Shown: in pieces, positions 4,025-51,281 of the stretch
How the letters are laid out: the number at the start of each line of letters is the position of its first letter
Position numbering within the stretch: position 1 is the first letter of the stretch
Origin: a phage
Direction: 5' to 3' (one strand)
DNA: 64,000 nt
Assembly (NCBI GenBank): GCA_012441205.1
Contig: GCA_012441205.1_4705.1
Position numbers and translations under genes: made by a program
Notes under the pieces: generated by a model
What the model saw: the letters and a program-made list of their open reading frames with translations, nothing else
The model's database searches: none
Told to the model about the DNA's origin: nothing

Positions 4025-6715
<2,691 letters not shown>

Positions 6716-7404: not shown

Positions 7405-7687
7405 GTAACACCTCATCAAGATTATCACTTACGCCAGGCGGTACCACAATACCGGTACGAATCACAGCAGCAACTTCCTGCATGCCCTTACCCTTCAACG
7501 CATAGGTTTCATGTACCACATTACGTCGAGTCGTTAATCCAACAAATTTACATACAACCATGTTGTTTTCTGAAAGATAAGCGGTGTCGAGTTCACCGTG
7601 CAACAATTCTTTTTCTTTGGTATCAATACCTAATAACGCAATTTGATAAGCAGAAAGTTTCCAATAACGCATAATCGTCCTATTCAT
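7379..7687 (-). CDS. hypothetical protein
   Basis: 102-aa ORF in gene chain. Confidence 0.4.
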   Translation of the reverse strand: MNRTIMRYWKLSAYQIALLGIDTKEKELLHGELDTAYLSENNMVVCKFVGLTTRRNVVHETYALKGKGMQEVAAVIRTGIVVPPGVSDNLDEVLHGTRKTAR

Positions 7688-17364: not shown

Positions 17365-17634
17365 TTATTTCACGTTAGAATCGAGAACCTCACGAACGGT
17401 TTTATCCGTACAACCACGAGCGATGTATGCATTAAGATCATCACGTAATTTACGCATCGTTGTTTTATCCGCATCAGAAACATCTGACTTGGTAAGACGG
17501 AATGCGATTGCATCGCGAATTTTATTCAACGTTGCTGGGTTATTACGCTGTTCTGCAAATACCGCTTTGATGAACTTATCGCTATCTTTCGAAGCAATAG
17601 CAGCATCAAGAATCTCAATATGCTTTTCAGACAT
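17365..17634 (-). CDS. hypothetical protein
   Basis: 89-aa ORF. Confidence 0.45.
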   Translation of the reverse strand: MSEKHIEILDAAIASKDSDKFIKAVFAEQRNNPATLNKIRDAIAFRLTKSDVSDADKTTMRKLRDDLNAYIARGCTDKTVREVLDSNVK

Positions 17635-21029: not shown

Positions 21030-21992
21030 TTAGTGAAGTACGCGATTGGTAGGAACGGTCACCGAACCGCAAGGGTTCAGATTCGTTGTTTCACGATCTG
21101 GGCTGAAACGGCGACTATTTTCTTCGTGATGTTTAACCGGATCGTCTTGCATCACGATTTCGATAGCTTCCTCAAACGACAGTTCCCGGTATCCGGCACG
21201 ATACAAGAACAACGGCCCGTCGGTTTCCAAACCCTCCACAAAACCCTTCGATAACCAAACACTACCATCGGCACTGTAAAGAATGGGTTCGACATCATAA
21301 TCGAAAACGTATTGGTACCAGTAATTAAACAGTTGGGCGATCCAACGATTGCGCAATAAATAATCGATTACTACAGCACTTTGTAGAATATGACTCCAGA
21401 TTATCTTTTCATTTTCCGTCTTCTGTAATAGCACACCACTTGTTGCTTGATGTACAGTGTACTTAAACAACCAAGCAAGGTTGGTGGCAAAAGCTGCAGC
21501 CAGATTTATATCTGGGAAATAACGTGCGGGTAAAACCAGATGTGGACGGTAAGCAGCAATCAGCGCTTCGTTAACTTCATCGCCTTCGACACAGATAACT
21601 CCATTTGTGGTCAGATGCCCCTGGTTCAATGATTGATCGATATAAAGATTACCTATCATTTCAACATGTTCAGTGCTTCCTAGAGGCAGTTCCGACATAA
21701 ATCGATCAAGGTCGACCTCTAACGTCGTGTTTACGACAAACGGATTGACCGGCCGGTTTAAATTAGGAAAAGTAATCGACCAAACCGCCTCGTGCTTCTC
21801 ATCAGCACTAACAAAGGAAACCCGGCGTTCAGCGTCACAATCGAGAACATAAGGTCTTAGTGTTTGATGACAATTCGAACAAACGTAACGGGCATCACGG
21901 ATAGGTGTGCTCGATATTACTTCGTAACGAATGGATGAAAGCGGGATTTCACATTCACAATGCGGGCACTCATTTTTGATGGTTATTTTCAT
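21030..21992 (-). CDS. hypothetical protein with N-terminal zinc-ribbon
   Basis: ECPHCECEIP...YVCSNCHQTL. Confidence 0.45.
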   Translation of the reverse strand: MKITIKNECPHCECEIPLSSIRYEVISSTPIRDARYVCSNCHQTLRPYVLDCDAERRVSFVSADEKHEAVWSITFPNLNRPVNPFVVNTTLEVDLDRFMSELPLGSTEHVEMIGNLYIDQSLNQGHLTTNGVICVEGDEVNEALIAAYRPHLVLPARYFPDINLAAAFATNLAWLFKYTVHQATSGVLLQKTENEKIIWSHILQSAVVIDYLLRNRWIAQLFNYWYQYVFDYDVEPILYSADGSVWLSKGFVEGLETDGPLFLYRAGYRELSFEEAIEIVMQDDPVKHHEENSRRFSPDRETTNLNPCGSVTVPTNRVLH

Positions 21993-30660: not shown

Positions 30661-32235
30661 TTACAATTCAAAATCTTCATCGATAACGCGCTGGGTAAGC
30701 ACTTTGTCGCTGAAGAACTCCACCTTGCGCTGATGGTATTTACGATGTGCTTCTATCGAAGTACATACCAGATACCAGAACGTTGGTGTCATTCCTTCAA
30801 ACTTCCCTTTCAGCTGACGTAGCCGTCCCAACACCTGAATGTTACCGGTTCGTGACCCCATCGCTAACGTCATGAACGTCATCACCAAGTCAGGAAGGTC
30901 GATGCCCGTACCTGCCGATTTCACGGTTGTAACGCTAATATCGTTATCCAACAAGACCATGAAATCTTCTTCAGCAGTATAAGGACCAATCTCTAACTCA
31001 GGAATACGTTCACTGAGATAATGCGACAACGACTTACACATATCGACGGTTGCACAATACACCAGCATCTTCATACCTTCCTGATACTGGTTCATGAAAC
31101 CTTTGATTATAACGGTATAGATGAAGTTAAAGTACGCGAGTTTGAGTTGCTTGTTCTTCATGATAGACTGTTCGAATATCGTGTGAGAATAAGAACCCCC
31201 AAAGCCTTTGTATCTGACTTTATCTGTACTGCGTAGTCGATACGTCACGGCATTTACCGCAATGTATTTCTTGTATTCGCATTTCGCATAACGTGCTTCT
31301 TTCGGATACATCAAATACAACATCCGCTCGATGAACGGATCGTCGGACACCGCCGTTGCTGACAGATAGATGATTTCCGGAATATTCGCGTAGCACTTCA
31401 CTTTGAACAAGAAATGCAAAGCTTCGTGACATTCGTCATGGATTAACAACCCAATGCCTGTTTTCTCCCAGAACTCGACTGGATGGAAAACATACGGTGC
31501 GACACAGTTGTTCTTTTCATAATCGGTTATGTATCTCTGAAACATGTTCAGTGAGAATAACGCAATTTTGAAATCCAGCTCACCTTGTTCCACCAACATC
31601 TGGAATTCCAGCATGCTGTAACGAGGAATGTCGGGATGCGGTGGGTCAGATTGGGCTGTACCGCGTATCTCGATAACATCACCTGGTTCCATACCGAAGA
31701 AACTTAGCAACGAGCTGCGCCATCCAGGCATGTATCTCGGTGACAGAATAATGCCCGTCCGTACACCACGTCGGAAAGTGATCTCCTGCGACATGGCTGT
31801 TTTACCACTGCCCGTGCCTGCGGTGTTTAGGCTCATTCTGAAGGGGGTATCCTTACCCCCGTCCATGTACTCCAACCATTCTTGCTGATCTTGACGCCAT
31901 GGAAACTTCCATTTCTTTACGAACTCCACTTCTTTACCTGGTACCGGATCGTGATAGACGATTTCCAACCACTCTTTTCGTATCCCTCGAGAAAAGATAA
32001 AATCCAAAAACGATTTCAACTGTTCACGGAGTAAGTATACCTCGCTATAATCGCTTCTTGCCGCGGCATACGTGTTTATGGTATCGGTAACCATTCTCCG
32101 TGTACGAGGATCGCGTCGTTTCCTCAGATGCAAACAACGGTCTCGAAGGTAATGGCCGATAAGATGGGCAAATCGAAGTCCGTATCCGCTCAGCCTCATG
32201 CCGTGCGAGAAGACGTCGATACGAGCTAACTTCAT
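30661..32235 (-). CDS. SF2 DEAH-box helicase
   Basis: Walker A NTAGTGSGKT, motif II HDECH, motif III SAT, motif V/VI TVKSAGTGIDLP. Confidence 0.7.
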   Translation of the reverse strand: MKLARIDVFSHGMRLSGYGLRFAHLIGHYLRDRCLHLRKRRDPRTRRMVTDTINTYAAARSDYSEVYLLREQLKSFLDFIFSRGIRKEWLEIVYHDPVPGKEVEFVKKWKFPWRQDQQEWLEYMDGGKDTPFRMSLNTAGTGSGKTAMSQEITFRRGVRTGIILSPRYMPGWRSSLLSFFGMEPGDVIEIRGTAQSDPPHPDIPRYSMLEFQMLVEQGELDFKIALFSLNMFQRYITDYEKNNCVAPYVFHPVEFWEKTGIGLLIHDECHEALHFLFKVKCYANIPEIIYLSATAVSDDPFIERMLYLMYPKEARYAKCEYKKYIAVNAVTYRLRSTDKVRYKGFGGSYSHTIFEQSIMKNKQLKLAYFNFIYTVIIKGFMNQYQEGMKMLVYCATVDMCKSLSHYLSERIPELEIGPYTAEEDFMVLLDNDISVTTVKSAGTGIDLPDLVMTFMTLAMGSRTGNIQVLGRLRQLKGKFEGMTPTFWYLVCTSIEAHRKYHQRKVEFFSDKVLTQRVIDEDFEL

Positions 32236-34238
32236 AACGTGATTACATCCTCCGGTTTAGGTTCTTTACGCGGTAAAAGCATGTAGTCGATCGGATGATC
32301 TGGCTTCATGGTTGGGATATAACTGTTCGGGTTTTGGAACGCATCCAGTTGCTCTTGGTGAGCGAACTTCATACTCAAGGAGCGCATGTTCATGTTCTTC
32401 TTGAAGGTACTGAAGTATCGTGTTGTTCCCTGTTTCGGCATGCGATAATCTTTCGTGTGTGGCGAACGAATCATGCTGGCGTAGAGAATAACATCGAGAT
32501 GCGAAAGGTTCATTCGCAGACGCTGGGCACACAGACGATGCCAATAATACAGCACGTTTGCAACTTCTTCCGGCGTTGCTTCGTCTTCCGAAAGGAATCC
32601 GGCACTGAAAGAACCTTTCCCGAATTTGAACTCACGTTCGATTTCTTTTGCGTATTCCATCATGTTTTTGTGGATTAACGGCATCTGGAATAACGTACGT
32701 GAATTGTCCCAATGTTTCAAGTCGAAAATCACAATCCCGTCAGACGTCACTTCCCAGCTATGGCGTTTTAGATAACGGATAAACGCTTTACTCGGTACAA
32801 CAGGACGACCGCAGAAATCGAAATTGACTTTGAGCTTACGATAGCTTTCATCTTTCCTGTCGTAAATCTCCATATCGCAAAGCGTCATGTTAAACAAACG
32901 TTGCGGTATCAGCGAACTAATTTCTTCCGCTTCGGCTACGTCGTACAACATGTTCGCAAGACCTAACTTCATCTTAATCAGCACGTGTTTACCTTTCAGC
33001 TCACGTGCGAGTTTGATGTCGTTCATGTTCTGGCTGTAGCGAAGGATATGTTGATATTCCGGTGGGATTGGTGCTGTGGATACCGTTGACGAACCATCGT
33101 GGTGTTTGGTAGAAAGAATGTTCTGCGTTACCTGTTGCGAACAGGTACGCGCTGCGCCATCGCCGACATTATCGGTTAGTGCGAAGTTATGACTTAATTC
33201 ACCGTAACACGTTGTACATACCCCAGCAGGATCGGGATGATGGCAATAGTTAACGGAGCGCATGCGTACCGTCGTACCAATCAATTCTTTCATGTGTGGT
33301 TGTATCGCTACCAACGAACCGTCATCACGAATAATGAATCGACCATGGAAGCCACGCAGGTCGGTCTCATCACGGATTGGCATCGGGATGGTCTCTTTAC
33401 TACCACAATCACCAGGATGAAGTCGTTGTACAACCGCTGTCGCTATCTGAAGTTCACGACCGAAATATTCAGACTTTTTAATCTGCTCTTTGTTGAACAG
33501 CAACGATTTCGCCGCAGAACGACTTTCTTTCAAGCTGTCGGGAAGAGAGATCAAACCAGCTGCGTACGACCGCATTACTGGATCACGGAATATCTCGGAG
33601 TTAATATCAGTCAAGAATCCACGCATCCCAATACACTGTAGCACCTGCCCAATCGAAACGTGTTCGGTTCTTACCGCACGTGCAATAGGGTTTGCATGTA
33701 ACGTTTTATCGGTGCTCAGTACCTTGGTCAGTTTCTTGTATGCGCTTTCGATACCTTCACGGGTGGGTTCCGCTTCGGCGATGATTTTCTTAACTTCGGG
33801 GTGTACAGTAATCTGATAAAAATCATCCGCGCAAATCGTTGTTACGTATTCCTCCAACGCATACGTAAAGAAGTTATACACATTGTTAAACATATCGAAC
33901 AATGCTTTCCAGAGAACCTCACGATTCTCTTGTGGGTAAGCATACATGCATTGACGATACGCGGCGCTTTGCAACGCAACCGATGAACCCGCTGTGAACT
34001 TGCGTTTATCAACCAGGTTCTCTTTTGTCAGTGGTGTCTCAGGATACATGCGATGCACAGACCAGTGCATGTAACTAAAGAAAATGCGTCGCGCACGTAA
34101 TTCATGAACGCCATCGTCCATCTCGATATATACGCGGTCATTAGGCTGTGCCCACTCGAATACCTCATCAACCGGCCAGTGCATAAGCTCGCGTGCCCTC
34201 ACACGACGTTTCGTGGTGGTCGTCTGTGTTGTAGTCAT
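32232..34238 (-). CDS. multisubunit RNA polymerase beta-prime homologue (C-terminal part)
   Basis: VRMRSVNYCHHPDPAGVCTTCYGE...AARTCSQQVTQNILSTKHHDG parallels E. coli RpoC VRSVVSCDTDFGVCAHCYG...[21 protein letters not shown] (recalled from memory). Confidence 0.6.
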   Translation of the reverse strand: MTTTQTTTTKRRVRARELMHWPVDEVFEWAQPNDRVYIEMDDGVHELRARRIFFSYMHWSVHRMYPETPLTKENLVDKRKFTAGSSVALQSAAYRQCMYAYPQENREVLWKALFDMFNNVYNFFTYALEEYVTTICADDFYQITVHPEVKKIIAEAEPTREGIESAYKKLTKVLSTDKTLHANPIARAVRTEHVSIGQVLQCIGMRGFLTDINSEIFRDPVMRSYAAGLISLPDSLKESRSAAKSLLFNKEQIKKSEYFGRELQIATAVVQRLHPGDCGSKETIPMPIRDETDLRGFHGRFIIRDDGSLVAIQPHMKELIGTTVRMRSVNYCHHPDPAGVCTTCYGELSHNFALTDNVGDGAARTCSQQVTQNILSTKHHDGSSTVSTAPIPPEYQHILRYSQNMNDIKLARELKGKHVLIKMKLGLANMLYDVAEAEEISSLIPQRLFNMTLCDMEIYDRKDESYRKLKVNFDFCGRPVVPSKAFIRYLKRHSWEVTSDGIVIFDLKHWDNSRTLFQMPLIHKNMMEYAKEIEREFKFGKGSFSAGFLSEDEATPEEVANVLYYWHRLCAQRLRMNLSHLDVILYASMIRSPHTKDYRMPKQGTTRYFSTFKKNMNMRSLSMKFAHQEQLDAFQNPNSYIPTMKPDHPIDYMLLPRKEPKPEDVITL

Positions 34239-34383
34239 TATTGCTTTCCGATTTAAATGGTTTTATCATACGGTTTACCAAATCCGTTGGACTTTACTAT
34301 CGTTGTGATAGCATCGGGAATCCCTTCCCTTAGGTTATGTAGGTGTTAATATATCTCCACTGCTGACCTTTATGTCGGCAGCA

Positions 34384-34869
34384 TTATCCAGCTTTCTGTT
34401 GTAAAGCGTATGGATCCATAGCGTCAGACATATCCGCAAAAACGGTGAGAATAAACCCCTTTATCTGTCTCACCTCGGTTACACGAAGCCCTTTATCATT
34501 ACGATATACGTTTTCTTCACCGACCAACTTCGGCCTGATAGCATAAACCCCATCAACAAACGGGAATGTCGGATACGGATAAATACCGATACGAATGATG
34601 TTTGGGTGATCGCCTAGAAGGTCACGTCCAAACTTATCGACTCGACCATAAATCGTTCCATCCACACCTTCCACTTCAATGAGATCATTTCGAATATCCT
34701 GAAATAGCTGCTCTAACGTGTCGGCGGGATACGCGTATGCGACGCCTAACGCTGGATCCTCAATGGTTTTGACACTGAATCCGTTAAGCCAAACAATCCG
34801 TTCGTCCGCCCATGTTTCTTCATATACCGTTAATCCATCGCCGTATATGTTGGCGTGTGCTATCTCCAT
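34384..34869 (-). CDS. hypothetical protein
   Basis: 161-aa ORF. Confidence 0.45.
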   Translation of the reverse strand: MEIAHANIYGDGLTVYEETWADERIVWLNGFSVKTIEDPALGVAYAYPADTLEQLFQDIRNDLIEVEGVDGTIYGRVDKFGRDLLGDHPNIIRIGIYPYPTFPFVDGVYAIRPKLVGEENVYRNDKGLRVTEVRQIKGFILTVFADMSDAMDPYALQQKAG

Positions 34870-35026
34870 AATCTCATTTCCTCTTATACGTTAGGATAGA
34901 TGACATGTTGGATATACGTTGCCTTTGCATATATTGCTTTATTTCCGTCAGAAATAACGGAAAATAAAAACAACGACATAGTTCCCTCCCACCTCCACAT
35001 GGGAGAGGGAGGGCTATTCGTGTTTA

Positions 35027-35389
35027 TTACTCTATGCTGTCTTCTTCAACACAATCCTCTTCGGAACCGTCGAACGTTTTCTGCACTGCGGTGGTATCCC
35101 AGTTGGCAGCGTAATCAGCCATCGCTTCGCGCAGTGCTTCTTCACCAGCATCACCAGCCAGGTCAAGCACAACCAACCCTTGCGCGACGTTTTGAGCGAC
35201 AGTATCAATAACGGTCGCATCTTCTTCAAAACTACGTACCGGTTCAATGGTGCCTACATCAACAGCATAGTTCGTGGTCGCTGTAAGCACGGCGACTTGT
35301 AGCGCGTCGCTATCTTCATCATGCAATGCTGCTTCAATACCGATTGGACGGGCCAGTTCTTGCAGTGTTAATTTGCGAATTAAGTTCAT
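35027..35389 (-). CDS. hypothetical acidic protein
   Basis: 120-aa ORF, D/E-rich. Confidence 0.45.
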   Translation of the reverse strand: MNLIRKLTLQELARPIGIEAALHDEDSDALQVAVLTATTNYAVDVGTIEPVRSFEEDATVIDTVAQNVAQGLVVLDLAGDAGEEALREAMADYAANWDTTAVQKTFDGSEEDCVEEDSIE

Positions 35390-35411
35390 TATGTTTTTCC
35401 TCAGGTGAATG

Positions 35412-35840
35412 TTAGCAATCGTTTAAAACTTTTTCGATACGATGGTTGACGAGTTCATTGAACGACTCTTCAACTTGTTCGATAATTTCATCAACGTCGA
35501 TATCTAATTGTTGGGGTTGGATAACATGCTCTTTCATGGTTTCTAGCCAGTATTCGGCTTTAACCATAACGTTAGCTACTTGTTCGACCTGGCTGCGTAT
35601 GTCGACGATCTGGCAGTCAGGATTTTTAATATCGATGATGTGCCCGTGCTGATTGATAAAGCCTAGCTTATTCGACGCCTTTACCGCATCGCGGGCAAGT
35701 TCTTGCAAGATTAAATTATTAACGTAGTTCACTGCTACGGAACGATTTTCGTTATCACTCATACCAGGGATCCTCTTTAAGTCATCACATTCTAGTGTTA
35801 AGCAGTTAAAATAAACCGTCCCTTTAATCAGCATAAACAT
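35412..35840 (-). CDS. hypothetical protein
   Basis: 142-aa ORF. Confidence 0.45.
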   Translation of the reverse strand: MFMLIKGTVYFNCLTLECDDLKRIPGMSDNENRSVAVNYVNNLILQELARDAVKASNKLGFINQHGHIIDIKNPDCQIVDIRSQVEQVANVMVKAEYWLETMKEHVIQPQQLDIDVDEIIEQVEESFNELVNHRIEKVLNDC

Positions 35841-35870
35841 CCTCCTCCCACCACAGGGGCAGGAGGAGGC
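35831..35870 (-). terminator. GC hairpin + TTTATGC-type terminator
   Basis: gcataaacatcctcctccc...ggaggagg downstream of 35881..36291. Confidence 0.4.
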
Positions 35871-35880
35871 GTAATATGCA

Positions 35881-36291
35881 TCAGAAAGGAGGGCGATCTT
35901 TAAATTCTAGCAACGTGTCTTCGAAGCAAGCGATAAGTTCAGACTGCAATTCGGTACGGCCTTGTTCACCGAAGAGTTCCAGCAACATTAACCCCCGAGC
36001 GGTCTTCGTAGCAACCTCTTCGCAGATGCGGAGATCGCGAACTTCATCATCGCCGACATCTTTACGTAACTGCGCTGCAATGGGCTTAAGATTACCGTTT
36101 TCATCGTGTTCGTCACGAAATGCATCATAAGCCGCATCGATGTTCGCGATCCGTGTCAACCCTTCAGAATCCCGCCAGTCTCGATATAATCCAAGCAGAC
36201 GGTTATGATTCTTCGTTTTGACGTTCGGTGCTGGAAGGTTGCGCAACAGATGTGGTGTAATCATTGCTATCACGCTATCCGAATGATCCAT
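35881..36291 (-). CDS. hypothetical protein
   Basis: 136-aa ORF. Confidence 0.45.
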   Translation of the reverse strand: MDHSDSVIAMITPHLLRNLPAPNVKTKNHNRLLGLYRDWRDSEGLTRIANIDAAYDAFRDEHDENGNLKPIAAQLRKDVGDDEVRDLRICEEVATKTARGLMLLELFGEQGRTELQSELIACFEDTLLEFKDRPPF

Positions 36292-36302
36292 CGTATACCT
36301 CG

Positions 36303-38471
36303 TTAGCTTTCGCAGTCATCTGCGTCGATGATTTGTCCGCCAGCAACGTTCAGTTGATGATACAGAATCCTCAACGCACGGTTGCCGCCAATGGGATACT
36401 TCTCGAAGTTGGTCGCAATAGGAATCGCTGACGGTTTATCGGTCGCATAGATGCTTTCAGTGATGCTATCCACCTGTTTTGGATTGTTCGCATAATCCAT
36501 AAAGACGCTAGCAAACCATCCGCCAGCAAAGGCGGTAACTTCGCGATGTTCAGATTCACCGCAGTAACGAGTTGGTTGCTCTTTACCAGGAGAACTGTAT
36601 TTATCGCTATTACTGAGTTTCGACGGTAATCCATGCGCTTGCAGTTTAGGGATGCCCACCGCTGACCAGTCGTTCGCCGTCTTCTCCAACATCATGATGT
36701 ACGTGTCACCGATCGCAATATCGTTCTTGGTTGTCCGCCATTGCCCAGAACGTCCACGATACCGTACAGGACCTTTCTTCAACGGGAACTCACGAATCAG
36801 ATTCTCCATACGTTCTGAACCTGCTGCGATACTGTCCGTCGGGATATAAACTTCCGTACCGTGGCGCTGTACGTACCGTAAATGATCCCATTTATCCTCA
36901 TCCGTGATACAGTATTTTTCAACAACCTGTTCCACGAACTCAGGACTGACGATATAGTAGTAGCGCATCAGTGTGTTCCAAGCGGTCTCCAGATCGCCTG
37001 CATCCATCACCGGTTTCAGTTCACGCATGATCTGATCACCAACACCGTTGATGTATGGCGCATTAACACGACTTAAACTCATCCTTTTGATTACCGTGCT
37101 ATCGTCGAACATAAAGTCCGCAACGTTACCCCATTGGTCAACCGGCATTTCATCGTCTTCCATGATGTCGGTTACGACGAATTTATCACCCGCCATACCG
37201 GTGAATTTAAACCCGATACCCGGAACAACATCGTACGTGTATGTGATGGTCACACGCCAATCATCGAGATTCTCTTTACGGTAATCGCGGGTCGGTAACA
37301 CATGACGTAGCTGTCCGTTAGGATTGCGGATATCAATACCGTGTTCAGCATCAGCCAGGTTCAACCACCACATCACCGTTTGATGATGACGTATCGGCGT
37401 ACCAACGCGTTCACGTTCGTACTTACGAACAGCATCCTGAATTCGGGTGTAAAGCAAACCAATCGCGTTCTCGTATTTCAGGAATTGACGATACGGAGGA
37501 CGCATCTTCTCTTCCATCATAATCGCACGCTCGCGGGCTTGACGTCCAGAACGACGATGTCGGTCGCTGACAACATCGATATCCGTTACACGCGCATTCG
37601 GTTCCGCGTAAGTGAGATCATCGTAAACATAATCCACACGCTGAAGGTTACACGTCATCATGTCAACAACGCTGAGGATAGGATCGATTTCGCGCGTTGC
37701 TGCAAGTAACCCATCCTTACGAATACGCTCACCGTTCTCGGGTATTGCTTGATATACCTCATCATCACCGTAGAGATTGATTGGGTATCGTGATTTACCT
37801 GATGTGATCGTTCGCTTCTCAATGCCGGTACTGGTGAAATGCTTCAATACACCACGACGGGCAACACCACCATCCTCGATACACTGATAGAAGCTACCGA
37901 AACACACTTTGCAATCGCGACCGTAACCCCACTCGCGCGTTTCTTGATTGATCGCTGGGCTTTCCATCAAACGAGAATACCGCGGTACGATCTGGCCTCG
38001 ACGAAGGGAATGGAACAAGTTGGTTGGTCGAAAACGGAAACCATACTGCTGATGCATGATGTGATGCTCAGGCACTTCAAGCAAGCGTAGCTCGTGACGG
38101 TTACCATCCTCTTGGTTTTCATACAGCACGTAATGCATCGTGTTTGTTTTGATGCTGTTTGCTGTATGTCCTGGTTGAAACCGCGGAATGATATCTATGA
38201 TGCGAGATTCAACTGGAAACTCTACTGACCAAGTGTTCTGTCCGTACTGGTATTCAATCCCCGTCGTTAGTCGGGACGGTTTCGCATCTTTGATAACCAA
38301 CGCTTGGCTAAGATGTCCACCAAACATCGCAGCGCGCTGTGCTGAGTTATAATGCAGTAGCCCGTTAAGTCCAGTCCCTACGCCAGTATACTCCTGTTTA
38401 ATGGGAATGATTTTACCTTCAGCGATTGCCTGCTTCACAGATTCATAAAGAGGTTTTTCTTTATAATGCAT
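36303..38471 (-). CDS. multisubunit RNA polymerase beta homologue (C-terminal two-thirds)
   Basis: LHYNSAQRAAMFGGHLSQALV...KPSRLTTG, GMAGDKFVVTDIMEDDEMPVDQWGNVADFMFD and C-terminal GGNRALRILYHQLNV parallel E. coli RpoB ([64 protein letters not shown]). Start trimmed to ATG 38469-38471 with AGGAAG RBS. Confidence 0.7.
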   Translation of the reverse strand: MHYKEKPLYESVKQAIAEGKIIPIKQEYTGVGTGLNGLLHYNSAQRAAMFGGHLSQALVIKDAKPSRLTTGIEYQYGQNTWSVEFPVESRIIDIIPRFQPGHTANSIKTNTMHYVLYENQEDGNRHELRLLEVPEHHIMHQQYGFRFRPTNLFHSLRRGQIVPRYSRLMESPAINQETREWGYGRDCKVCFGSFYQCIEDGGVARRGVLKHFTSTGIEKRTITSGKSRYPINLYGDDEVYQAIPENGERIRKDGLLAATREIDPILSVVDMMTCNLQRVDYVYDDLTYAEPNARVTDIDVVSDRHRRSGRQARERAIMMEEKMRPPYRQFLKYENAIGLLYTRIQDAVRKYERERVGTPIRHHQTVMWWLNLADAEHGIDIRNPNGQLRHVLPTRDYRKENLDDWRVTITYTYDVVPGIGFKFTGMAGDKFVVTDIMEDDEMPVDQWGNVADFMFDDSTVIKRMSLSRVNAPYINGVGDQIMRELKPVMDAGDLETAWNTLMRYYYIVSPEFVEQVVEKYCITDEDKWDHLRYVQRHGTEVYIPTDSIAAGSERMENLIREFPLKKGPVRYRGRSGQWRTTKNDIAIGDTYIMMLEKTANDWSAVGIPKLQAHGLPSKLSNSDKYSSPGKEQPTRYCGESEHREVTAFAGGWFASVFMDYANNPKQVDSITESIYATDKPSAIPIATNFEKYPIGGNRALRILYHQLNVAGGQIIDADDCES

Positions 38472-38502
38472 AGGACTTCCTATTATCGAATTGAGGTACG
38501 TC

Positions 38503-38856
38503 ATGTCTAACACGCCCCTGAACGACTTTCTTAAGACAAACCCCGATGACCTCATCCACGATCTTGATTTCAGGAACGTTGTTGAGATGCATCTGGAATA
38601 TTTCAAAAATGCCGGACTGGTCTCTACGATAGACATACCACCCGAACGCGCCTACGAATTCGATGGTAACTTTTATGGATTGTGTCGTGTTCTGCTCGGT
38701 GAGGGCAGTGAACCAATGCACTGGATAACCATGAGACTCAATGGTTATCGCGACCCTACGGAATACACCGCCGATGTTCTAACCATGAAGATTGTCGATA
38801 CAAGCGCAATCAACACATTAAAACAGCAGTATCGCACAATCCACTACAGCGCTTAA
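38503..38856 (+). CDS. hypothetical protein
   Basis: Plus-strand ORF (MSNTPLNDF...) followed by hairpin + TTTATGC at 38862-38900. Confidence 0.4.
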   Translation: MSNTPLNDFLKTNPDDLIHDLDFRNVVEMHLEYFKNAGLVSTIDIPPERAYEFDGNFYGLCRVLLGEGSEPMHWITMRLNGYRDPTEYTADVLTMKIVDTSAINTLKQQYRTIHYSA

Positions 38857-38921: not shown

Positions 38922-40202
38922 TCAGAAACGATTTACAGTACGTCCTGTCCACGCGCTCAGGATGTTGTTACGTTCCATCTCAGCACGACGACGTAAACCG
39001 TTTGGCGACTGCGGTGCTTGCGGCATCCCCCATCCAGCCGGTTGCATACCCATGCCCGGCCAAGCAGCGTTATTGAACATCGTACCGTTACGTTCCGCAA
39101 CACGGTTCATCAGCGCATCAAACGTGCTATTACCTGCCGGTTGGTTACCGCCGCTTTCCCACTGATTAGGTTGGACAGGTGCGGTTTTACCTAACAGGTT
39201 ATCGATCACACTGCCTGTTGAAGCAGGACGCGGTTGCATACCTTCATGTGCAGCTGCTGATGGATTTGGCTTAACCGTCGGCTGCGGACGACTGTTCAGC
39301 GTTACACCCATGTTGTATTTCGCTGGCGGAATCTGACCACGATGTTGATTGATCGGTTCAAAATCCTCAACCCAGGTAACATCACAGTAGCCGTTCTCTT
39401 TACCGTCGTACTTATCACCAAACAGTTTGATGAGATTGTTCAGCGGTTCCATCAGCTTAGCGAAGCTGTGGATAAGACAATCGAAATACGGAGCATGAGG
39501 ATCGCTTGACCCAGCGTTGTACGTTTCACTTACCTCACCCGCGTGTGGGATAACGTACTCAACCAGGTTTCTCAGCATGTTAAGATCTTTCTTGGAAATC
39601 TCAACACCACACCAGTACGTTTTCTTATCTTTCGTGCTGATATGTTCTTCTTCCATGAACGGGAAAGTAACGACCGCAACACGGGTCATCTTCTTACCCA
39701 TGTAGGTTGCACCAGTACGACGAAGATAAATTTTGGACAGTGTATACGGCGTATCACGTTTCAGCCAAACGGTGACCAGTTTACCCAGGGTCGTTAATGT
39801 TTTATCGCTGGCGTCCGCAAGGATGTTGAAGAACTCTTTTTGCTTCGGTCCGAAACGTTTTGCTTCTTTAGGATTGATTGCGGTTTCAACCATCCAAATC
39901 AGCATGGAGCATAGCGTGGCGTTAAAACGAACAACCATCGCACGACGCAGGAACTGAAGTACTTCCGATTCGCCGTTCATCACGTCTTCACTTAGCGGAT
40001 GGAACAGCACACGTTCAGCCAGCTGATTTCCGGTACGAACTTCAGAAACCGGCATCAGCAACGGCATGCTTTCCACGGTAGCGGCAACTGCAACAACTTT
40101 ACCATCCCCATCCGTAAAACGATATTCTAATTCGTGGGCGTCATTCTCAAAATAGTTAACGCTCTGTAGTGCTTTGCGATAAGCTTCGATAAGCTTCGAC
40201 AT
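38922..40202 (-). CDS. hypothetical protein with Gly/Pro/Gln-rich C-terminal low-complexity tail
   Basis: 426-aa ORF. Confidence 0.5.
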   Translation of the reverse strand: MSKLIEAYRKALQSVNYFENDAHELEYRFTDGDGKVVAVAATVESMPLLMPVSEVRTGNQLAERVLFHPLSEDVMNGESEVLQFLRRAMVVRFNATLCSMLIWMVETAINPKEAKRFGPKQKEFFNILADASDKTLTTLGKLVTVWLKRDTPYTLSKIYLRRTGATYMGKKMTRVAVVTFPFMEEEHISTKDKKTYWCGVEISKKDLNMLRNLVEYVIPHAGEVSETYNAGSSDPHAPYFDCLIHSFAKLMEPLNNLIKLFGDKYDGKENGYCDVTWVEDFEPINQHRGQIPPAKYNMGVTLNSRPQPTVKPNPSAAAHEGMQPRPASTGSVIDNLLGKTAPVQPNQWESGGNQPAGNSTFDALMNRVAERNGTMFNNAAWPGMGMQPAGWGMPQAPQSPNGLRRRAEMERNNILSAWTGRTVNRF

Positions 40203-40257
40203 ATTGTATTTCCTTTTCTTTACGTCAACGGTCCCCCTACAACAGGGGACCTATGGA

Positions 40258-41844
40258 TTAGAAGTTGCCTTTGGTAGTTACCGCATCCACCAGGTTAAAC
40301 AAATCAACACTCAGCTTGTAAACCTCCTGCTGGCTACGGTTGAGCAGCGGGCTGTATGCAGATGGGTTGATGTTCGGCATGGTGTACGGAATCGGTGCGG
40401 AGCCGTCAACGCTGATCTTGAACTGGCTGTCCAGGAACAGGTTAATCGCGCCGCTCACCATAACCGCATTCGGGTTGTTACCCAACATGGAGGGTAGGAT
40501 ATTGGTAATCATGTCAGAACGCATTTGTTCAGCAGCACGGTTACAATCGTATCCTTTAATGAACGGTACAGCGTCGGTAACCGCAACCGCCCACTGACCT
40601 GGCATGATACCGAGTTCTGGGTGACCATGGTTGTCAGCAATGAAACGGAACGACTCCAACATGCGATACGTCATCGCAGCAGGCATCATTGCAGCAAGCG
40701 ATGAGCAATACAGCGTTGGATAATCGATCACGTCCCAGCTCTGGCTGTCGGTAGGCATCCAACCAAACTCGGTGGTTGCTGATGTACCACGACGAGCTTC
40801 CACATACGGGAATAACGTTAAGACGTCACGGATATGTTCACCGAACATCCGTTTCATGTCAGCCCAACTCAGGCTACCGCTGAAAGCGAATCCTTCATCA
40901 CGCATAATCGCACCGAATACCGGATGCGCAACCAGAGGTTCTTCACGAACAGCTTGAGCGGCTTCCACGTAAATATCCTCGTTCTCTGCGCTACCTGGAT
41001 GAGACCCGCTTTCGTACGTCTGACGAATAGCTCCAACATTATCGAAGGCTTTTCTCAGATAGATGGTTGGGATGTTCGTATCAGCACTAGCTGGTTTGAT
41101 TTTCTCTGTTGCGAAACACATAGCTGCTTCCACACCACGGAAAACCGGTTCCGGTTGCGGTGGATAGGATGTACGATGAACCACATCAGCGTAGGCTGGA
41201 TCGAACTGCTGCATCACGTTCTGCATGGCTGGGTCCATGAACTGGTTATCAAAACCACCATTACCTACCCAACGTGCTGTTGATGCATAGGTCAGCGTAT
41301 CCTGAACACGAGTACTGAACTGAACATCACGATTAACAGGGTCGTATGCGCCGGTCAACAGGTTCGTTGCGTCCATCGGGGTTGCACGAACGATTTGCTT
41401 ACCGAACATATCCGTCGTGGTTGTTTCGGTTACCTGGATTACGTTCGTGAAGAAGAACACCAGTTCGTTCGGCAGATCGATAGCACGCGTTGTAAACGCA
41501 TCGAGACTTACAGAATGGTCGGTGTATCCAGAAATGTAATGGACGCGCTTGGTTCCTGGTGCAAGGGCCAAGGATTCTTCTACAGCCATCATGAAATGGA
41601 AACGGCGTGTGCCCCAACCATTCGCAATCTCCGAAACCCCCTCAGGTTCTGCAGACTGCTGCAACAACCCGGTTGCAAGCTTATTGATTGCTGATGGTGT
41701 TGTTGCCGTACCGAACCGCGTCGTGTTAATAAAGTCTTCGATGCTACGCATGCTATCTGCGTGGAATCGTAGCGGACGACGCTGTACGTTGTTGTACGGT
41801 GCGGTTTCAACCATCAGGATTTCACGAACATTCATCGGGATCAT
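40258..41844 (-). CDS. hypothetical protein (possibly structural)
   Basis: 528-aa ORF. Confidence 0.5.
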   Translation of the reverse strand: MIPMNVREILMVETAPYNNVQRRPLRFHADSMRSIEDFINTTRFGTATTPSAINKLATGLLQQSAEPEGVSEIANGWGTRRFHFMMAVEESLALAPGTKRVHYISGYTDHSVSLDAFTTRAIDLPNELVFFFTNVIQVTETTTTDMFGKQIVRATPMDATNLLTGAYDPVNRDVQFSTRVQDTLTYASTARWVGNGGFDNQFMDPAMQNVMQQFDPAYADVVHRTSYPPQPEPVFRGVEAAMCFATEKIKPASADTNIPTIYLRKAFDNVGAIRQTYESGSHPGSAENEDIYVEAAQAVREEPLVAHPVFGAIMRDEGFAFSGSLSWADMKRMFGEHIRDVLTLFPYVEARRGTSATTEFGWMPTDSQSWDVIDYPTLYCSSLAAMMPAAMTYRMLESFRFIADNHGHPELGIMPGQWAVAVTDAVPFIKGYDCNRAAEQMRSDMITNILPSMLGNNPNAVMVSGAINLFLDSQFKISVDGSAPIPYTMPNINPSAYSPLLNRSQQEVYKLSVDLFNLVDAVTTKGNF

Positions 41845-41845
41845 T

Positions 41846-43432
41846 TTATTTTTTTCCTCTTAAATTTACTACGTGTTCATTTAATCGAACAACTAATTGC
41901 ACAAGCTGCTGACGGATATCTGCTGGACAAAGCATCAATCCTTTACGGTCAGCTGGGACTTTCTCAAGGATTTCCGGGCCTGCTGCTGAAACATCCCAAT
42001 CCCATTCACAAAACGCATCGGCCACCATGTTAATACCGACAACCGGTAAAGTTGTACGTTCATCTTCATACATGGCGTGTGGATACAATTTATTGACAGT
42101 AATGATCTCCTGTGGTTTTAATTGGTGGATAATCTGATAAACATCGTCGCGTTTAACCTGGATACCTACGGTAAGCGCTGCCAGTTGAGGAAAACCCCAA
42201 TGGTCTAACAAGCACGCTGCGATGGCTAACGCTTTTGCCTGATGCACGGCTTCAATCGGTGCCAGACTTCTCGCCGGAAGATGGCTATCAAGCAACCATT
42301 GTGCCAGTGCTCGGCATCCGCGGTTGATTGGTTTTAACTCAACGGTGTCATCGTGTTTAGCGTACGTGTATCCATCGTAACGTTTTGCGATACGCGCATA
42401 CATGTCTTCAACTTTACCGTAAGGTGCCGTTTCGTCGACGTCGTGCAACACACGTTCCATCTGGGTAAGATAGGCGATGTCAAGAATGAGTACACGCGGT
42501 GAACGTTTATCTTTCACCATCAACGCATCGATCACGCCTTGACTGTCTTCATCTTGCGCGTTCCCTCGTGGGGTTTTCTCACGAATCGGTCCACTGAAAC
42601 GTCGTTCCGTACAAAGGTTATTCACATAGCTAAAGATTAACGTTACCAGATGCGTACAACTCACTAACACCCCATCTTTAACGACAGGCTGTACGGCTTG
42701 GTCCAAGTCGCGTACGGCGAGACGGCGGACGATGGCTTGTGAACGCAACCAGCCAGGCACTTTCTCCGTCGACATGTAATCCACGGTCATCGACAGCGTG
42801 ATCTTTTTATCACCCGTTTGTGCGCGGATATAGTCTTCCAGTCGGTCGTAAGCGGCGATATCGTGAATGCGTGTTTTATACATCAACGACATAGCCACTT
42901 CTTCTTTACGAACCGTTCCGTACGTTTTCCCTGCGTCAATCAGAAACTCTGCCCAAATCGGCACCATCAGACGGACGTAGATCGCTAACGCCGTTAACTC
43001 AACGTAATCATTTCGTAAATAGGTTTTCTCAGGAATATCATCCTCACCTAATGTTGTTTTCATGTCCGGCGGTAATTTTACCCAACCTGGGGTATTACAC
43101 AACGCCAGAATCTCTTCGTACACAACCGGTTTGTAAATTTCACCAACAGCGCGACTCAACTCCTCCATTTGTTGTTGTGGAGCAATGTAGTTATCCATCG
43201 CTTCACGTGCTTTAACGAACCCTTCGAAGATGTCGTCAATTCGACGTGGGTTCTTTTGTTCTATCCAGGCGAGATACTTGTTAATCTCCCGCATCTGATT
43301 GCTAGCCATATCCCCATCAATCTTGATGTAACCCTGGCCTGAAAATTCCACAGTACGTCCATCACGGTGTTTGATGAGATAGTGATCCAGCTTTTCTTTT
43401 CCTTGCGTCGTAATGACGGGCACTATGTGCAT
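41846..43432 (-). CDS. hypothetical protein
   Basis: Start trimmed to ATG 43430-43432 (MHIVPVITT) with AAGAGG RBS; promoter-like motif 57 bp upstream. Confidence 0.5.
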   Translation of the reverse strand: MHIVPVITTQGKEKLDHYLIKHRDGRTVEFSGQGYIKIDGDMASNQMREINKYLAWIEQKNPRRIDDIFEGFVKAREAMDNYIAPQQQMEELSRAVGEIYKPVVYEEILALCNTPGWVKLPPDMKTTLGEDDIPEKTYLRNDYVELTALAIYVRLMVPIWAEFLIDAGKTYGTVRKEEVAMSLMYKTRIHDIAAYDRLEDYIRAQTGDKKITLSMTVDYMSTEKVPGWLRSQAIVRRLAVRDLDQAVQPVVKDGVLVSCTHLVTLIFSYVNNLCTERRFSGPIREKTPRGNAQDEDSQGVIDALMVKDKRSPRVLILDIAYLTQMERVLHDVDETAPYGKVEDMYARIAKRYDGYTYAKHDDTVELKPINRGCRALAQWLLDSHLPARSLAPIEAVHQAKALAIAACLLDHWGFPQLAALTVGIQVKRDDVYQIIHQLKPQEIITVNKLYPHAMYEDERTTLPVVGINMVADAFCEWDWDVSAAGPEILEKVPADRKGLMLCPADIRQQLVQLVVRLNEHVVNLRGKK

Positions 43433-43488
43433 AACAACCTCTTTTCGCGGTTCCCTGTTAAAACGTCTTCTGTGACGTCTACCACAAA

Positions 43489-43505
43489 GGTAATATAAGC
43501 GTGAA
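43489..43505 (-). promoter_or_regulatory. early-promoter-like motif TTCACGCTTATATTACC (minus strand)
   Basis: Copy B of the TATATTAC family; TGACGTC half-palindrome at 43473-43479 between motif and start codon. Confidence 0.45.
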
Positions 43506-43636
43506 TAATTTTGGATTCCGGCTGAGTTATCGCTCAGCATGCAAGGCATCCCGCCGAAGCGAGACACCTTGCACTAACGGAAAATATTCGCGTTACCTTC
43601 TGAATCGAAGACTCAGAATGCGATGCTAAAGCATGA

Positions 43637-44428
43637 TTAGAACGCTAAGCCATCAAAGGCTACGGACGGATCATCGTCGTCATTTGCGCTTGGCGCATCC
43701 CAACGGGTATCAGGGGCCGCTGAAGCCGAACTTGATGCGTTAGAGTTACCGTTGTACTGGCCGTTACCAGCATTACGGTTACCGCCGCCGTTGTTATTGT
43801 TACGGTTATAGCTATTGTTGCCACCATTACTTACGCTACGGCTTTCACCGTCGAAATTGGTTGCGAGGATGCTCGGCAACACTGCGCGATGAATACGTAC
43901 AAATTCCAACGCACAAAGCGGAGAAACAACCCCGATCTGTAAAGGTTGCCCAGACTCATCAACCAGAGCGTGGAAACGCGGTGGCTTGAATACGAATTGG
44001 ATGTTCGGTTTTTGGTACGCGGTTACAGCGATATATACCGAACCATCATCGTTCTTACCAACCCATGTTGTACTTTCGGTAATCTGTTTCTTCTTACCTG
44101 GATTATTGCGATCGTCGATAACCTTTTCGTTCTTCATCGCAAAACGTTGGCCTGGCTTACCCTTAGCAACCTGCTCGAGGATCGCAAGCAGGTTATAGAA
44201 CGCGTATGAACTCATGCGTGCCCAAATGCTTTCGGCGCGACCCTGCTGGTCTTTACGACCTGTATAAACCGTGATGCGCGGTTGATTCTTAGCAACGCTA
44301 ATTTTCAATGAGGGGATTGAATTACCGCCCTCAACCTTTTCGTCCGCCCACAGTTTCCAGTTGTTGTCGTCATACGCTGTAGGAATAATGTTTCCTTGTG
44401 GTTTACTGCCCGAATTCCAATTGCTCAT
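43637..44428 (-). CDS. possible ssDNA-binding protein (Gly/Asn-rich linker and acidic C-terminal tip)
   Basis: C-terminus NGGNNSYNRNNNNGGGNRNAGNGQYNGN...DDDDPSVAFDGLAF resembles the SSB linker and acidic tail architecture; N-terminal fold not verifiable here. Confidence 0.3.
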   Translation of the reverse strand: MSNWNSGSKPQGNIIPTAYDDNNWKLWADEKVEGGNSIPSLKISVAKNQPRITVYTGRKDQQGRAESIWARMSSYAFYNLLAILEQVAKGKPGQRFAMKNEKVIDDRNNPGKKKQITESTTWVGKNDDGSVYIAVTAYQKPNIQFVFKPPRFHALVDESGQPLQIGVVSPLCALEFVRIHRAVLPSILATNFDGESRSVSNGGNNSYNRNNNNGGGNRNAGNGQYNGNSNASSSASAAPDTRWDAPSANDDDDPSVAFDGLAF

Positions 44429-50331: not shown

Positions 50332-50556
50332 TTAGCAATGGTTGTTAGTTGCTTCTATTTCGTCAAGATAAGGTTCTACGTCATCGCCCTCCACGAATTC
50401 GTTGAACCAACAGTCAATAGTGGAAATAACCGGTGACTGGTGTTCACATTTCTTAGATACCTTAAAAGGTACGTTATTATCCATCATACCGAGTTCGGGT
50501 CGAAAACGCCCGAAATGTTTCGCAGTCCAAATGTCTGGGACGATATGGTTGTTCAT
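50332..50556 (-). CDS. RNAP beta-prime N-terminal subunit, exon 3 (joins 52532..51282 + 50931..50917 + 50556..50332)
   Basis: Begins ATG 50554-50556, MNNHIVPDIW...MMDNNVP, aligning with E. coli RpoC QMAVHVPL...MMSTNNILSP immediately after NADFDGD; ORF-track TTG start at 50568 rejected. Confidence 0.6.
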   Translation of the reverse strand: MNNHIVPDIWTAKHFGRFRPELGMMDNNVPFKVSKKCEHQSPVISTIDCWFNEFVEGDDVEPYLDEIEATNNHC

Positions 50557-50916
50557 CAATATCTTCAATACGAATCGCTACTTCGTATCCGCAGCATTAC
50601 CTGCAGCTCCTGGTGTTACCAGGATGTTGAGAGTATATCATGTCCATATTCCAAATGGAACGTAGGACTTCCGCGCTGGATCTCGCTTGAGACCACTTAC
50701 TCGTTGAACGTTCTCCTAAAAGGAGCTTCGCTGCTGATTGGACATTGTTACGTACGGTAGGCGTCCCACTAAAGGGATTTTCATTGAAGCCGCGTACATC
50801 CGTTACCTTGTTTCTACCTTATCGGTTCCTCTTACGAGGCGTAACGGCTTTAGCCTATTCCAGCAATTCACGGAATGCATATTCTCCTTTTCAGGAGATA
50901 AGGCCATGGCTCTGGC
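50557..50916 (-). ncRNA. intron 2 (group I-like, ORF-less, 360 nt), paralogue of intron 1
   Basis: 5' exon ends in U, intron ends in G; conserved blocks and covarying hairpins shared with 50932-51281; separates micro-exon from exon 3. Confidence 0.6.
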
Positions 50917-50931
50917 ATCACCGTCAAAGTC
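50917..50931 (-). CDS. RNAP beta-prime micro-exon encoding catalytic DFDGD
   Basis: Minus-strand gactttgacggtgat = D-F-D-G-D, in frame with flanking exons under the proposed junctions. Confidence 0.65.
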
Positions 50932-51281
50932 CACGTATCTTCAGTATGAATCGCTACTTCATACCCGCAGCATTACCTGCAGCTCCTGGTGTTACCAGGA
51001 CGGAGAGATCATCTCATCACCCACGAAGGGTGTTCCGCGCTACCCTCAGCGAATTCGAGGGACATGATCGTTGAACCTTCCACCGATGATCGATGGCTAG
51101 GCTGCTGATTGGACATTGTGCGTTGGGGTGGCATCCTGGTTCAGGACTGTCATTGAAGCCTCCCAACATCCACTCACTTATTTCCGCCTCATCGGCTCCC
51201 ACAAGGGCAGAGTGGCTTTAGCCCGTCTCAGCAATTCACGGAATTCAAGCTCTTCCTTTCGGAAGGCAGGGCCTCATTTGA
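50932..51281 (-). ncRNA. intron 1 (group I-like, ORF-less, 350 nt)
   Basis: Begins right after codon GCU (Ala of ...GYNA) at 51282; ends in G before the micro-exon; paralogous to intron 2. Confidence 0.6.

Follow-up and report, generated by a model that had tools for sequence, protein, structure and literature searches.

Split non-virion RNA polymerase genes of a Goslar-like jumbo phage, and predicted introns in the beta' catalytic loop

Polymerase genes beside the chimallin gene

A 64,000-nucleotide stretch of phage DNA (contig GCA_012441205.1_4705.1 of GenBank assembly GCA_012441205.1; the window, meaning the whole stretch that was analysed) carries a cluster of RNA polymerase (RNAP) genes that includes two open reading frames (ORFs), beta'-C and beta-C, with homology to the C-terminal parts of the beta' and beta subunits (Table 1). 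The phage is a close relative of the Escherichia coli phage Goslar, a nucleus-forming jumbo phage of the Chimalliviridae. We regard it as almost certain that the two ORFs are the C-terminal halves of beta' and beta in the non-virion RNA polymerase (nvRNAP) of a Goslar-like nucleus-forming jumbo phage, and that the four small genes between them are a lineage-specific accessory insert. The 6.4-kb stretch in question is 96.8% identical in nucleotide sequence to Escherichia phage vB_EcoM_Goslar (NC_048170), and the window is colinear with that genome from 29259 to 50876, resuming from 51283. All of the polymerase-cluster genes discussed lie on the minus strand, and the chimallin (ChmA) gene among them identifies this locus as the conserved chimallin-nvRNAP cluster. 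The order is chimallin, beta'-N, homologues of phiKZ gp59, gp62, gp65, gp66, gp67 (ChmC), gp68, gp69 and gp70, then beta-C, beta'-C and a gp75-like helicase, which is colinear with phiKZ gp54-gp75. Nine phiKZ genes of the gp59-gp75 region map colinearly onto the window by tblastn, and the same gene order has been described for the conserved PhiPA3 cluster.

The product of beta'-C matches phrog_3015, 'RNA polymerase beta subunit', from end to end (E=4.7e-170, 568 bits), and phiKZ gp74 (PDB 7OGP chain D) over residues 11-654 of 668 (E=1.3e-86). More distant matches, obtained with phmmer to solved chains, are to the AR9 nvRNAP (E=1.3e-13) and to bacterial beta', including the cyanobacterial-type split beta' (8gzg_Z; E=1.2e-4), so that the expected placement on RpoC and on the phage enzymes was borne out. 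Alignment to bacterial beta' puts region F and the bridge helix at residues 203-264. A preliminary description of this DNA, made from the letters alone, had recognised a phiKZ-like polymerase with split beta' and beta genes and had located the CYG and trigger-loop region in this ORF. Both ORFs are indeed present with matches to phiKZ chains at about 1e-86, and both elements were found, CTTCYG at residues 341-346 (33218..33201) and the trigger-loop segment VGDGAARTCSQQVTQNILSTKHH at residues 358-380 (33167..33099). The 3' end of the gene shares 4 nt with the downstream helicase gene. Homologues of beta'-C occur in 305 phage records.

The product of beta-C matches phrog_3295 (603 bits), phiKZ gp71-73 (7ogp_C, E=6.1e-86) and the AR9 enzyme (E=2.3e-17). 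Its segment GFKFTGMAGDKF (37214..37179) pairs with E. coli beta 1063-1074 in the alignment, and the phiKZ counterparts of its two conserved lysines are K386 and K394 (PMC7618050). This ORF had been described as running from the GDK motif to the C terminus; the GDK is there, at the second conserved lysine, but some 420 residues precede the motif. Although the longest ORF extends to 38636, that start was rejected on account of its weak ribosome-binding site and the alignment of homologues. The ATG at 38471 is preferred because it has an AGGAAG Shine-Dalgarno sequence and is the annotated start in Goslar, because residue 1 of a 66%-identical homologue (contig L017) aligns there, and because a conserved plus-strand gene at 38491..38856 would overlap the extension. 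Unlike its counterparts in phiKZ and PhiPA3, the gene is uninterrupted. Relative to Goslar, beta-C has 69 synonymous and no non-synonymous changes and beta'-C has 59 and 1, jointly 128 synonymous codon changes and 1 non-synonymous; both polymerase genes are under purifying selection.

With the remaining subunits included, the catalytic elements of the nvRNAP could all be located in genes of the window from motifs and alignments, with the solved enzyme (PMC7618050) for reference, and the PHROG RNAP family matches reach 568, 603 and 386 bits. The sigma-like fifth subunit also matches phrog_3209 (E=5.5e-68) and, by tblastn, phiKZ gp68 (E=2e-35); a longer start for its gene, at 43567, was rejected for its weak ribosome-binding site and by homologue alignment. 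A homologue of phiKZ gp123, the N-terminal part of beta (beta-N), was searched for within the 64-kb window and was not found (best E=0.4). In Goslar this gene lies at 39951..41621 (E=4e-49), and by analogy the beta-N gene of the present phage presumably lies outside the window.

The preliminary description had left the choice between a virion and a non-virion set to be made, and beta'-C and beta-C belong to the non-virion set. This assignment is made because the strongest matches are four phiKZ nvRNAP chains with homologues in the window (gp74 at 1.3e-86, gp71-73 at 6e-86, spliced gp55 at 1.1e-74 and gp68 at 1.7e-27), because the gene order is colinear with phiKZ gp54-gp75, and because mass spectrometry of Goslar virions names other gene products as the virion RNA polymerase (vRNAP), namely gp78, gp196, gp205, gp207 and gp210, and the counterparts of the genes discussed here are not among these. 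One could argue instead that both genes are part of the virion-packaged set, given that beta and beta' homologues are split in either set, with beta' divided at the same point (PMC7598289), and that a weak secondary PHROG match, phrog_2962 (40 bits), shows that related families exist. The non-virion chains gp74 and gp71-73 are nevertheless the best matches by about 250 bits or more, the genes sit in a chimallin-ChmC-gp68 cluster, and gp165, gp171 and gp247 are missing from the Goslar vRNAP list. The vRNAP reading is effectively refuted, and we give it next to no chance.

Several points count against our assignment and should be kept in mind. None of the three genes reaches the gathering score of a Pfam RNAP family, the closest approach noted for beta-C being Rpb2_6 at 16.3 bits against a gathering score of 23.4. 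Homology to the cellular enzyme is visible solely via phmmer to solved chains, and in the case of beta-C the match to E. coli beta 1063-1241 is marginal (E=0.0055), so that its placement is firm on the phage enzymes but not on RpoB. Statements on the timing of expression, on assembly, on import into the nucleus and on absence from the virion would all be carried over from phiKZ and Goslar. Nothing contradicts the polymerase assignment. On the model of those two phages, the injected virion polymerase would transcribe the nvRNAP genes early, and their translation would follow in the cytoplasm. In a five-subunit enzyme assembled without alpha or omega, beta'-C would supply the bridge helix and trigger loop, and beta-C the second double-psi beta-barrel with its two conserved lysines. 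The enzyme would then be imported into the chimallin-bounded phage nucleus and transcribe the middle and late genes there.

Table 1. Features of the polymerase cluster, with positions in the window
Feature	Position	Strand	Remarks
Chimallin (ChmA) gene	52625..54520	-	Pfam PF25677, E=2.7e-26; phrog_4795
beta'-N exon 1	51282..52532	-	417 codons, ending ...LKGYNA; zinc ribbon CGCG...CPNC at 52364..52308
Predicted group I intron 1	50932..51281	-	350 nt, no ORF; RF00028, 30.1 bits, E=1.8e-5
Predicted micro-exon 2	50914..50931	-	18 nt, GAC TTT GAC GGT GAT GCC = DFDGDA, catalytic aspartate triad
Predicted group I intron 2	50557..50913	-	357 nt, no ORF; RF00028, 30.4 bits, E=1.4e-5
beta'-N exon 3	50332..50556	-	MNNHIVPD...NNHC*, 74 codons and stop; = Goslar gp185
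Sigma-like fifth nvRNAP subunit	41846..43432	-	528 aa; homologue of phiKZ gp68 and Goslar gp175; 7ogp_B, E=1.7e-27
nvRNAP beta C-terminal subunit (beta-C)	36303..38471	-	722 aa; homologue of phiKZ gp71-73 and Goslar gp171
Double-psi beta-barrel segment of beta-C	37179..37214	-	GFKFTGMAGDKF, aa 420-431; two universally conserved lysines, K422 and K430
s4	35881..36291	-	136 aa; Goslar gp170; hypervariable
s3	35412..35762	-	116 aa from the ATG at 35762 (longest ORF to 35840); Goslar gp169
s2	35027..35389	-	120 aa, pI 4.05; Goslar gp168
s1	34384..34869	-	161 aa, pI 4.5; Goslar gp166; good Shine-Dalgarno
nvRNAP beta' C-terminal subunit (beta'-C)	32232..34238	-	668 aa; homologue of phiKZ gp74 and Goslar gp165
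Zinc-site remnant CTTCYG, then trigger-loop segment, of beta'-C	33099..33218	-	Aligned to bacterial beta' CxxCYG...AAQSIGEPGTQLTMRTFH
Superfamily 2 (SF2) helicase gene	30661..32235	-	Homologue of phiKZ gp75 and RAY gp250; directly 3' of beta'-C

The small genes between beta-C and beta'-C

Four small ORFs, s1 to s4, separate the two polymerase genes. All are acidic (isoelectric point, pI, 4.0-5.0), each has a good Shine-Dalgarno sequence, and their differences from Goslar fall mostly at third codon positions, with 13 synonymous and 5 non-synonymous changes in s1, 11 and 1 in s2, 11 and 9 in s3, and 13 and 3 in s4. To judge from the sequence, they are genuine genes. In the case of s3, the Shine-Dalgarno sequence belongs to the start at 35762 and an indel relative to Goslar lies upstream of it; the start at 35840 is unlikely, as it begins directly after a 12-bp hairpin and the indel falls between the two starts. 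This GC-rich hairpin, CCTCCTCCTGCC-CCTGT-GGTGGGAGGAGG (35841..35869, minus strand, between s4 and s3), is the strongest stem-loop of the region.

None of the four has a Pfam family above threshold or a PHROG family, and a tblastn search of 50,697 phage records returned Goslar as the sole match. Among 5.8e9 proteins s1 has homologues of at least 83% identity only, and among 1.84e9 proteins s2 has two cluster representatives only, at 93% and 53% identity, the latter encoded downstream of the beta-C gene in L017. The block 3' of that 66%-identical beta-C holds an s4-like ORF (30%), an s2-like ORF (52%) and two unrelated small ORFs; neither s1 nor s3 was detected in the part of the L017 contig examined. 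In another close relative, L016, the counterpart of s4 (L016:2932-3342) is 55% identical in amino acids while the neighbouring small ORFs are 96-98% identical, which may reflect either a hypervariable gene or an allelic replacement. For the small ORFs, all-against-all blastp gave no significant paralogy; profile-profile comparison with hhalign gives a hint of a weak common 37-residue C-terminal motif in the s2 and s4 families (probability 48%, E=1.8e-4). The AlphaFold2 model of s1, based on an alignment of six sequences, was unusable, with a mean pLDDT of 50. The 'Imp7 (gp166)' of a 2026 preprint was considered as Goslar gp166 and rejected, the name meaning phiKZ gp166.

The preliminary description had proposed these ORFs as possible accessory subunits. 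That the nvRNAP has at least one of them as an accessory or regulatory subunit would suit their arrangement, with a polymerase gene on either side in the same orientation, little spacing and good ribosome-binding sites, as well as their coding-type substitution pattern. The homologues of s2 and s4 also hold their place 3' of beta-C in L017, where beta-C itself is just 66% identical, and it is generally known that small acidic proteins can bind polymerase or act as DNA-mimic binders. However, all five true subunits are recognisable in phiKZ, unlike s1-s4, for which no homologue beyond Goslar-like phages appeared in the phage records or in billions of predicted proteins. The beta-C and beta'-C genes are directly adjacent in phiKZ and are numbered consecutively in PhiPA3 (gp65-66, gp67) and RAY (gp248, gp249), with no gene between them in any of the three, and the purified, solved phiKZ enzyme has exactly five subunits (PMC7618050). 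The content of the small-ORF block is also variable, and in L017 its proteins have diverged much faster than beta-C. An accessory subunit among the four is in our judgement unlikely, and the proposal gives way to ORFans confined to the Goslar lineage, the fifth subunit being the product of 41846..43432. We conclude that s1-s4 are best read as a fast-evolving accessory insert specific to that lineage, not as conserved polymerase subunits. A polymerase-associated role peculiar to the lineage would be compatible with the sequence of a small ORF, and to that extent speaks against this conclusion, with a slim chance of being right.

Predicted introns in the beta' N-terminal gene

The N-terminal part of beta' is encoded some 16 kb from beta'-C. 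The preliminary description was right to place beta' on distant polypeptides, but the gene it gave at 50332..52532 is not a single ORF: at the catalytic NADFDGD motif, a pair of group I introns divides it into three exons. The product after in silico splicing is 497 aa long, with predicted junctions AACGCU|GACUUUGACGGUGAUGCC|AUGAACAAC, and would contain YNADFDGDAMNNH. This protein aligns with phiKZ gp55 without gaps through NADFDGD (NADFDGDQLN in phiKZ; E=1.1e-74), splicing having lifted the score from 208.7 to 255.3 bits, and it matches the AR9 chain at E=3.6e-14. A 15-nt micro-exon (DFDGD, with the splice after GAU) was also considered; it was rejected since the product would lack one residue that is present in phiKZ and in every intron-less allele, and since P1 pairing gives it no support.

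The two introns are paralogues of about 70% identity, and the orthologue of intron 2 in Goslar (86%) is the second intron there, called intron B here. Thirteen sequences of intron 1, intron 2 and intron B were aligned over 378 columns and 93 base pairs. They have in common a fold with P1, P2, P3-P8 and P9-P9.2 and a hairpin between P7 and P3 as in subgroup IA, and 99.5% of the cells are paired. Two-sided changes occur in 36 of the 93 pairs, compared with 1-4 when the partners are slid, and none of 500 shuffles reaches the observed value. P7, for instance, exists in three compensating versions (GAGUA/UACUC, GAUCA/UGAUC and GAAUA/UAUUC). The guide sequence of the Goslar-type intron A likewise follows synonymous changes in the exon (CCGACUU/GAGUCGG versus CAGAUUU/GGAUCUG). 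At the splice sites, P1 of intron 1 is GCU|UC-AAAU-GAGGC with a U.G pair, whereas in intron 2 it is GCC|A / UGGC, with C-G and not U.G at the 5' splice site; the last base of both introns is G.

The splicing of both introns is inferred, and two features tell against it. Both score about 30 bits, under the Rfam gathering score of 50 (E about 1e-5 on a 1.2-kb stretch), so that Rfam at gathering thresholds returns nothing in the whole window; the introns surface in E-value mode only, where there is no other sub-threshold group I match within the 64 kb. Intron 2 also has a C where U is near-universal at the 5' splice site. This C, at 50914, the last base of the micro-exon, recurs at the same place in the related genome L005 (L005:5619), while the B-type orthologues all have GCU with U.G. 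As two independent genomes carry the C, it is presumably tolerated. One might take these features, together with the lack of homing-endonuclease ORFs, to mean that the inserts are decaying remnants that no longer splice, that beta'-N is defective, and that the genome is non-viable or an assembly chimera. Yet beta'-N holds the sole NADFDGD found in the nvRNAP cluster of the window and should be essential, its exons stay in frame, and exon 1 is 100% identical in protein to that of relatives. The same two-intron layout with the same C is present in L005, an independent 237.5-kb genome of 97.7% identity. Finally, every helix, P3, P7 and P9-P9.2 among them, is maintained by the 36 compensatory pair changes between paralogues of such divergence, which is unlike decay. 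A defective beta'-N is thus very improbable, and we continue with two introns that are probably spliced.

A comparison of twelve related loci from IMG/VR and metagenomes with the window, 13 genomes in all, revealed five intron layouts, with four insertion sites that all fall within about 30 nt (GGGU^AU, GCU^GAC, UU^C and GCY^AUG). Intron 1 stands alone in L007, L008 and L009; introns 1 and 2 occur together in the window and L005; Goslar combines a different intron, with an HNH/NUMOD endonuclease, with intron B; L006, L010, L011, L012 and L014 have three introns, X, A and B, separated by two 13-nt micro-exons; and L013 has intron X alone, with an I-HmuI-like ORF. Each of the four sites has an observed empty allele. 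For example, the site of intron 1 is empty in Goslar, L006 and L013, and that of intron 2 in L007-L009 and L013, and L013 has GYNADFDGDAMNNH contiguous after its single intron. The empty alleles at every site and the contiguity in L013 fix the exon junctions. In L006 the tandem introns span 5244-6365 (X 5244..5608, A 5622..5997, B 6011..6365) and the micro-exons are AUAAUGCAGAUUU and CGACGGUGACGCU, the tandem triple being found also in L010, L011, L012 and L014. The ORF of intron X in L013 encodes a 321-aa I-HmuI-like HNH endonuclease.

The roughly 30 nt that encode GYNADFDGDAM thus hold four insertion sites in Goslar-like phages and a fifth in phiKZ, with up to three tandem introns and micro-exons of 13-18 nt. 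It is a tentative proposal, to which we give a little less than an even chance, that group I intron turnover in nucleus-forming phages has a hot spot in the catalytic loop of the nvRNAP beta' gene. The two sites of the window have the 5' exon (A/G)AYGCY in common, paired by the same guide-sequence GGC; speculatively, this common sequence points to reverse splicing, in preference to endonuclease homing, as the route of spread to an ectopic site nearby. Equally speculatively, stacked introns may be tolerated because transcription takes place apart from translation in chimalliviruses. Beyond the Goslar lineage, the profile of the window introns finds the 3' halves of the phiKZ gp55 intron (nhmmer E=1.6e-17) and of the gp71/73 intron (1.4e-12). 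These halves of the phiKZ introns (AF399011, 5186..6560 and 21442..21676) have the core and two terminal hairpins in common with those of the window, GCAG-GUAAUG-CUGC and GUAUGA-AGUAGCGA-UCAUAC. On sequence grounds, the nvRNAP genes of distant chimalliviruses seem to harbour introns of a single family. That chimallivirus polymerase genes can contain introns is already known; no description of this turnover, of the tandem arrangement or of the 13-18-nt micro-exons was found in the papers searched.

Neighbouring genes, significance and known systems

Conserved nucleus-associated genes adjoin the polymerase genes at 38922..44428, namely ChmC (43637..44428, minus strand; Goslar gp176, phiKZ gp67), a weak homologue of phiKZ gp69 (Imp1) at 40258..41844 (minus strand; E=1e-7 across the N-terminal 160 aa), and a homologue of phiKZ gp70 at 38922..40202 (minus strand) with a low-complexity tail rich in Q, P and G. 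Between 30500 and 39000, a scan for sigma-70 promoters gave 13, compared with 14.9 in shuffled sequence, and one for intrinsic terminators gave 9, compared with 7.7; with counts showing no excess over shuffled sequence, no operon boundaries were drawn. A tRNA scan of the window found none. The SF2 helicase gene of L016 (L016:7004-9265) encodes 753 aa, compared with 524 aa in the window, owing to an in-frame insertion of about 229 aa directly after the Walker A GSGKA that ends ...VTHN|T and looks intein-like. The insertion (about 700 nt) has no Pfam match; a group I intron was rejected there, as there is no Rfam match and the insertion is an in-frame protein insertion. Further away, close to the thymidylate synthase gene, the window differs from Goslar at 16373..17356 (minus strand) and 17366..17373: an extra 327-aa ORF with a DUF7448 domain (E=1e-23) stands in place of about 5 nt of Goslar, and about 1.6 kb of Goslar (gp143-gp145) is missing. 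A D12-class N6-adenine DNA methyltransferase gene lies at 7680..8507 (minus strand; Pfam PF02086, E=2e-60).

The split nvRNAP genes are already known, with orthologues annotated in Goslar and the family structurally solved; as a defining feature of phiKZ-like phages, they matter little as a finding. The gain is one of bookkeeping: the set is non-virion, the sigma-like subunit is the product of 41846..43432, and 'subunit' is not the right name for the four small ORFs. The intron architecture of beta'-N is more valuable. In Goslar, a widely used model phage, the misannotation of beta'-N affects structure prediction, proteomics searches and knock-down design. The series of intron layouts can also serve as material on intron-mediated competition between co-infecting chimalliviruses (a competition shown for the PhiPA3 intron endonuclease gp210), on tandem ribozyme splicing around 13-18-nt exons, and on whether the separation of transcription from translation favours intron accumulation.

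Goslar is the closest known system. Its gp165, gp171, gp175 and gp247 with gp185 are orthologues of the window genes and follow the same order, with a nucleotide identity of 96.8%, and it has the same four small ORFs (gp166, gp168-170) between beta-C and beta'-C. The first intron of its beta'-N is of a different type: it bears the HNH/NUMOD endonuclease gp186 and lies 5 nt downstream, within the Phe codon, so that a 13-nt micro-exon follows it. In the window, the first intron is an ORF-less paralogue of the second, placed between the Ala and Asp codons, and is followed by 18 nt. In RefSeq (NC_048170 36098..39386), gp247 is exon 1 read through into the intron, followed by one Intron_gpI, gp186 and gp185, the last labelled 'hypothetical'; there is no annotation for the second intron (about 36320..36685) or for the 13-nt DGD micro-exon (DGDA codons), and no coding sequence holds the complete NADFDGD.

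The phiKZ nvRNAP (gp55, gp68, gp71-73, gp74 and gp123; PDB 7OGP/7OGR/8QUE) has five subunits, with the same beta' and beta split and the same catalytic elements, and its gene neighbourhood from gp54 to gp75 is that of the window, at 24-32% amino-acid identity (tblastn). The phiKZ genes gp55 and gp71/73 also bear group I introns. That of gp55 is a single HNH-bearing intron at AAU^GCU, between the Asn and Ala codons and 3 nt upstream of the first site of the window. In phiKZ beta-C is split by its intron and adjoins beta'-C, whereas in the window it is intact and 1.9 kb of small genes have been inserted. The nvRNAP of Bacillus phage AR9 (PDB 7S00/7S01) likewise combines split beta and beta' homologues with a promoter-specificity subunit. 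AR9 is much more distant, however: it is not nucleus-forming, it uses uracil-containing promoters on the template strand, and its enzyme is without the zinc-binding domain (PMC7618050).

With the cellular enzyme, beta'-C can be aligned at region F, the bridge helix, CxxCYG and the trigger loop, and the GxKxxGxxGxKG segment of beta-C pairs within E. coli beta 1063-1241. The split beta' of cyanobacteria is divided after the first double-psi beta-barrel, as here (PMC7598289). Unlike cellular RNAP, the phage enzyme has no alpha or omega, beta is split too, and the fifth subunit is sigma-like and permanently bound. As for the introns, several group I introns per phage gene are known from Twort orf142 and from the DNA polymerase and terminase genes of Bastillevirinae, with HNH endonucleases in some and no ORF in others (PMC11878797). 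The present case differs from these in that the host gene is a catalytic subunit of RNA polymerase, the internal exons are just 13-18 nt long, the insertion sites are clustered within about 30 nt around NADFDGD, and the two tandem introns are paralogues of each other.

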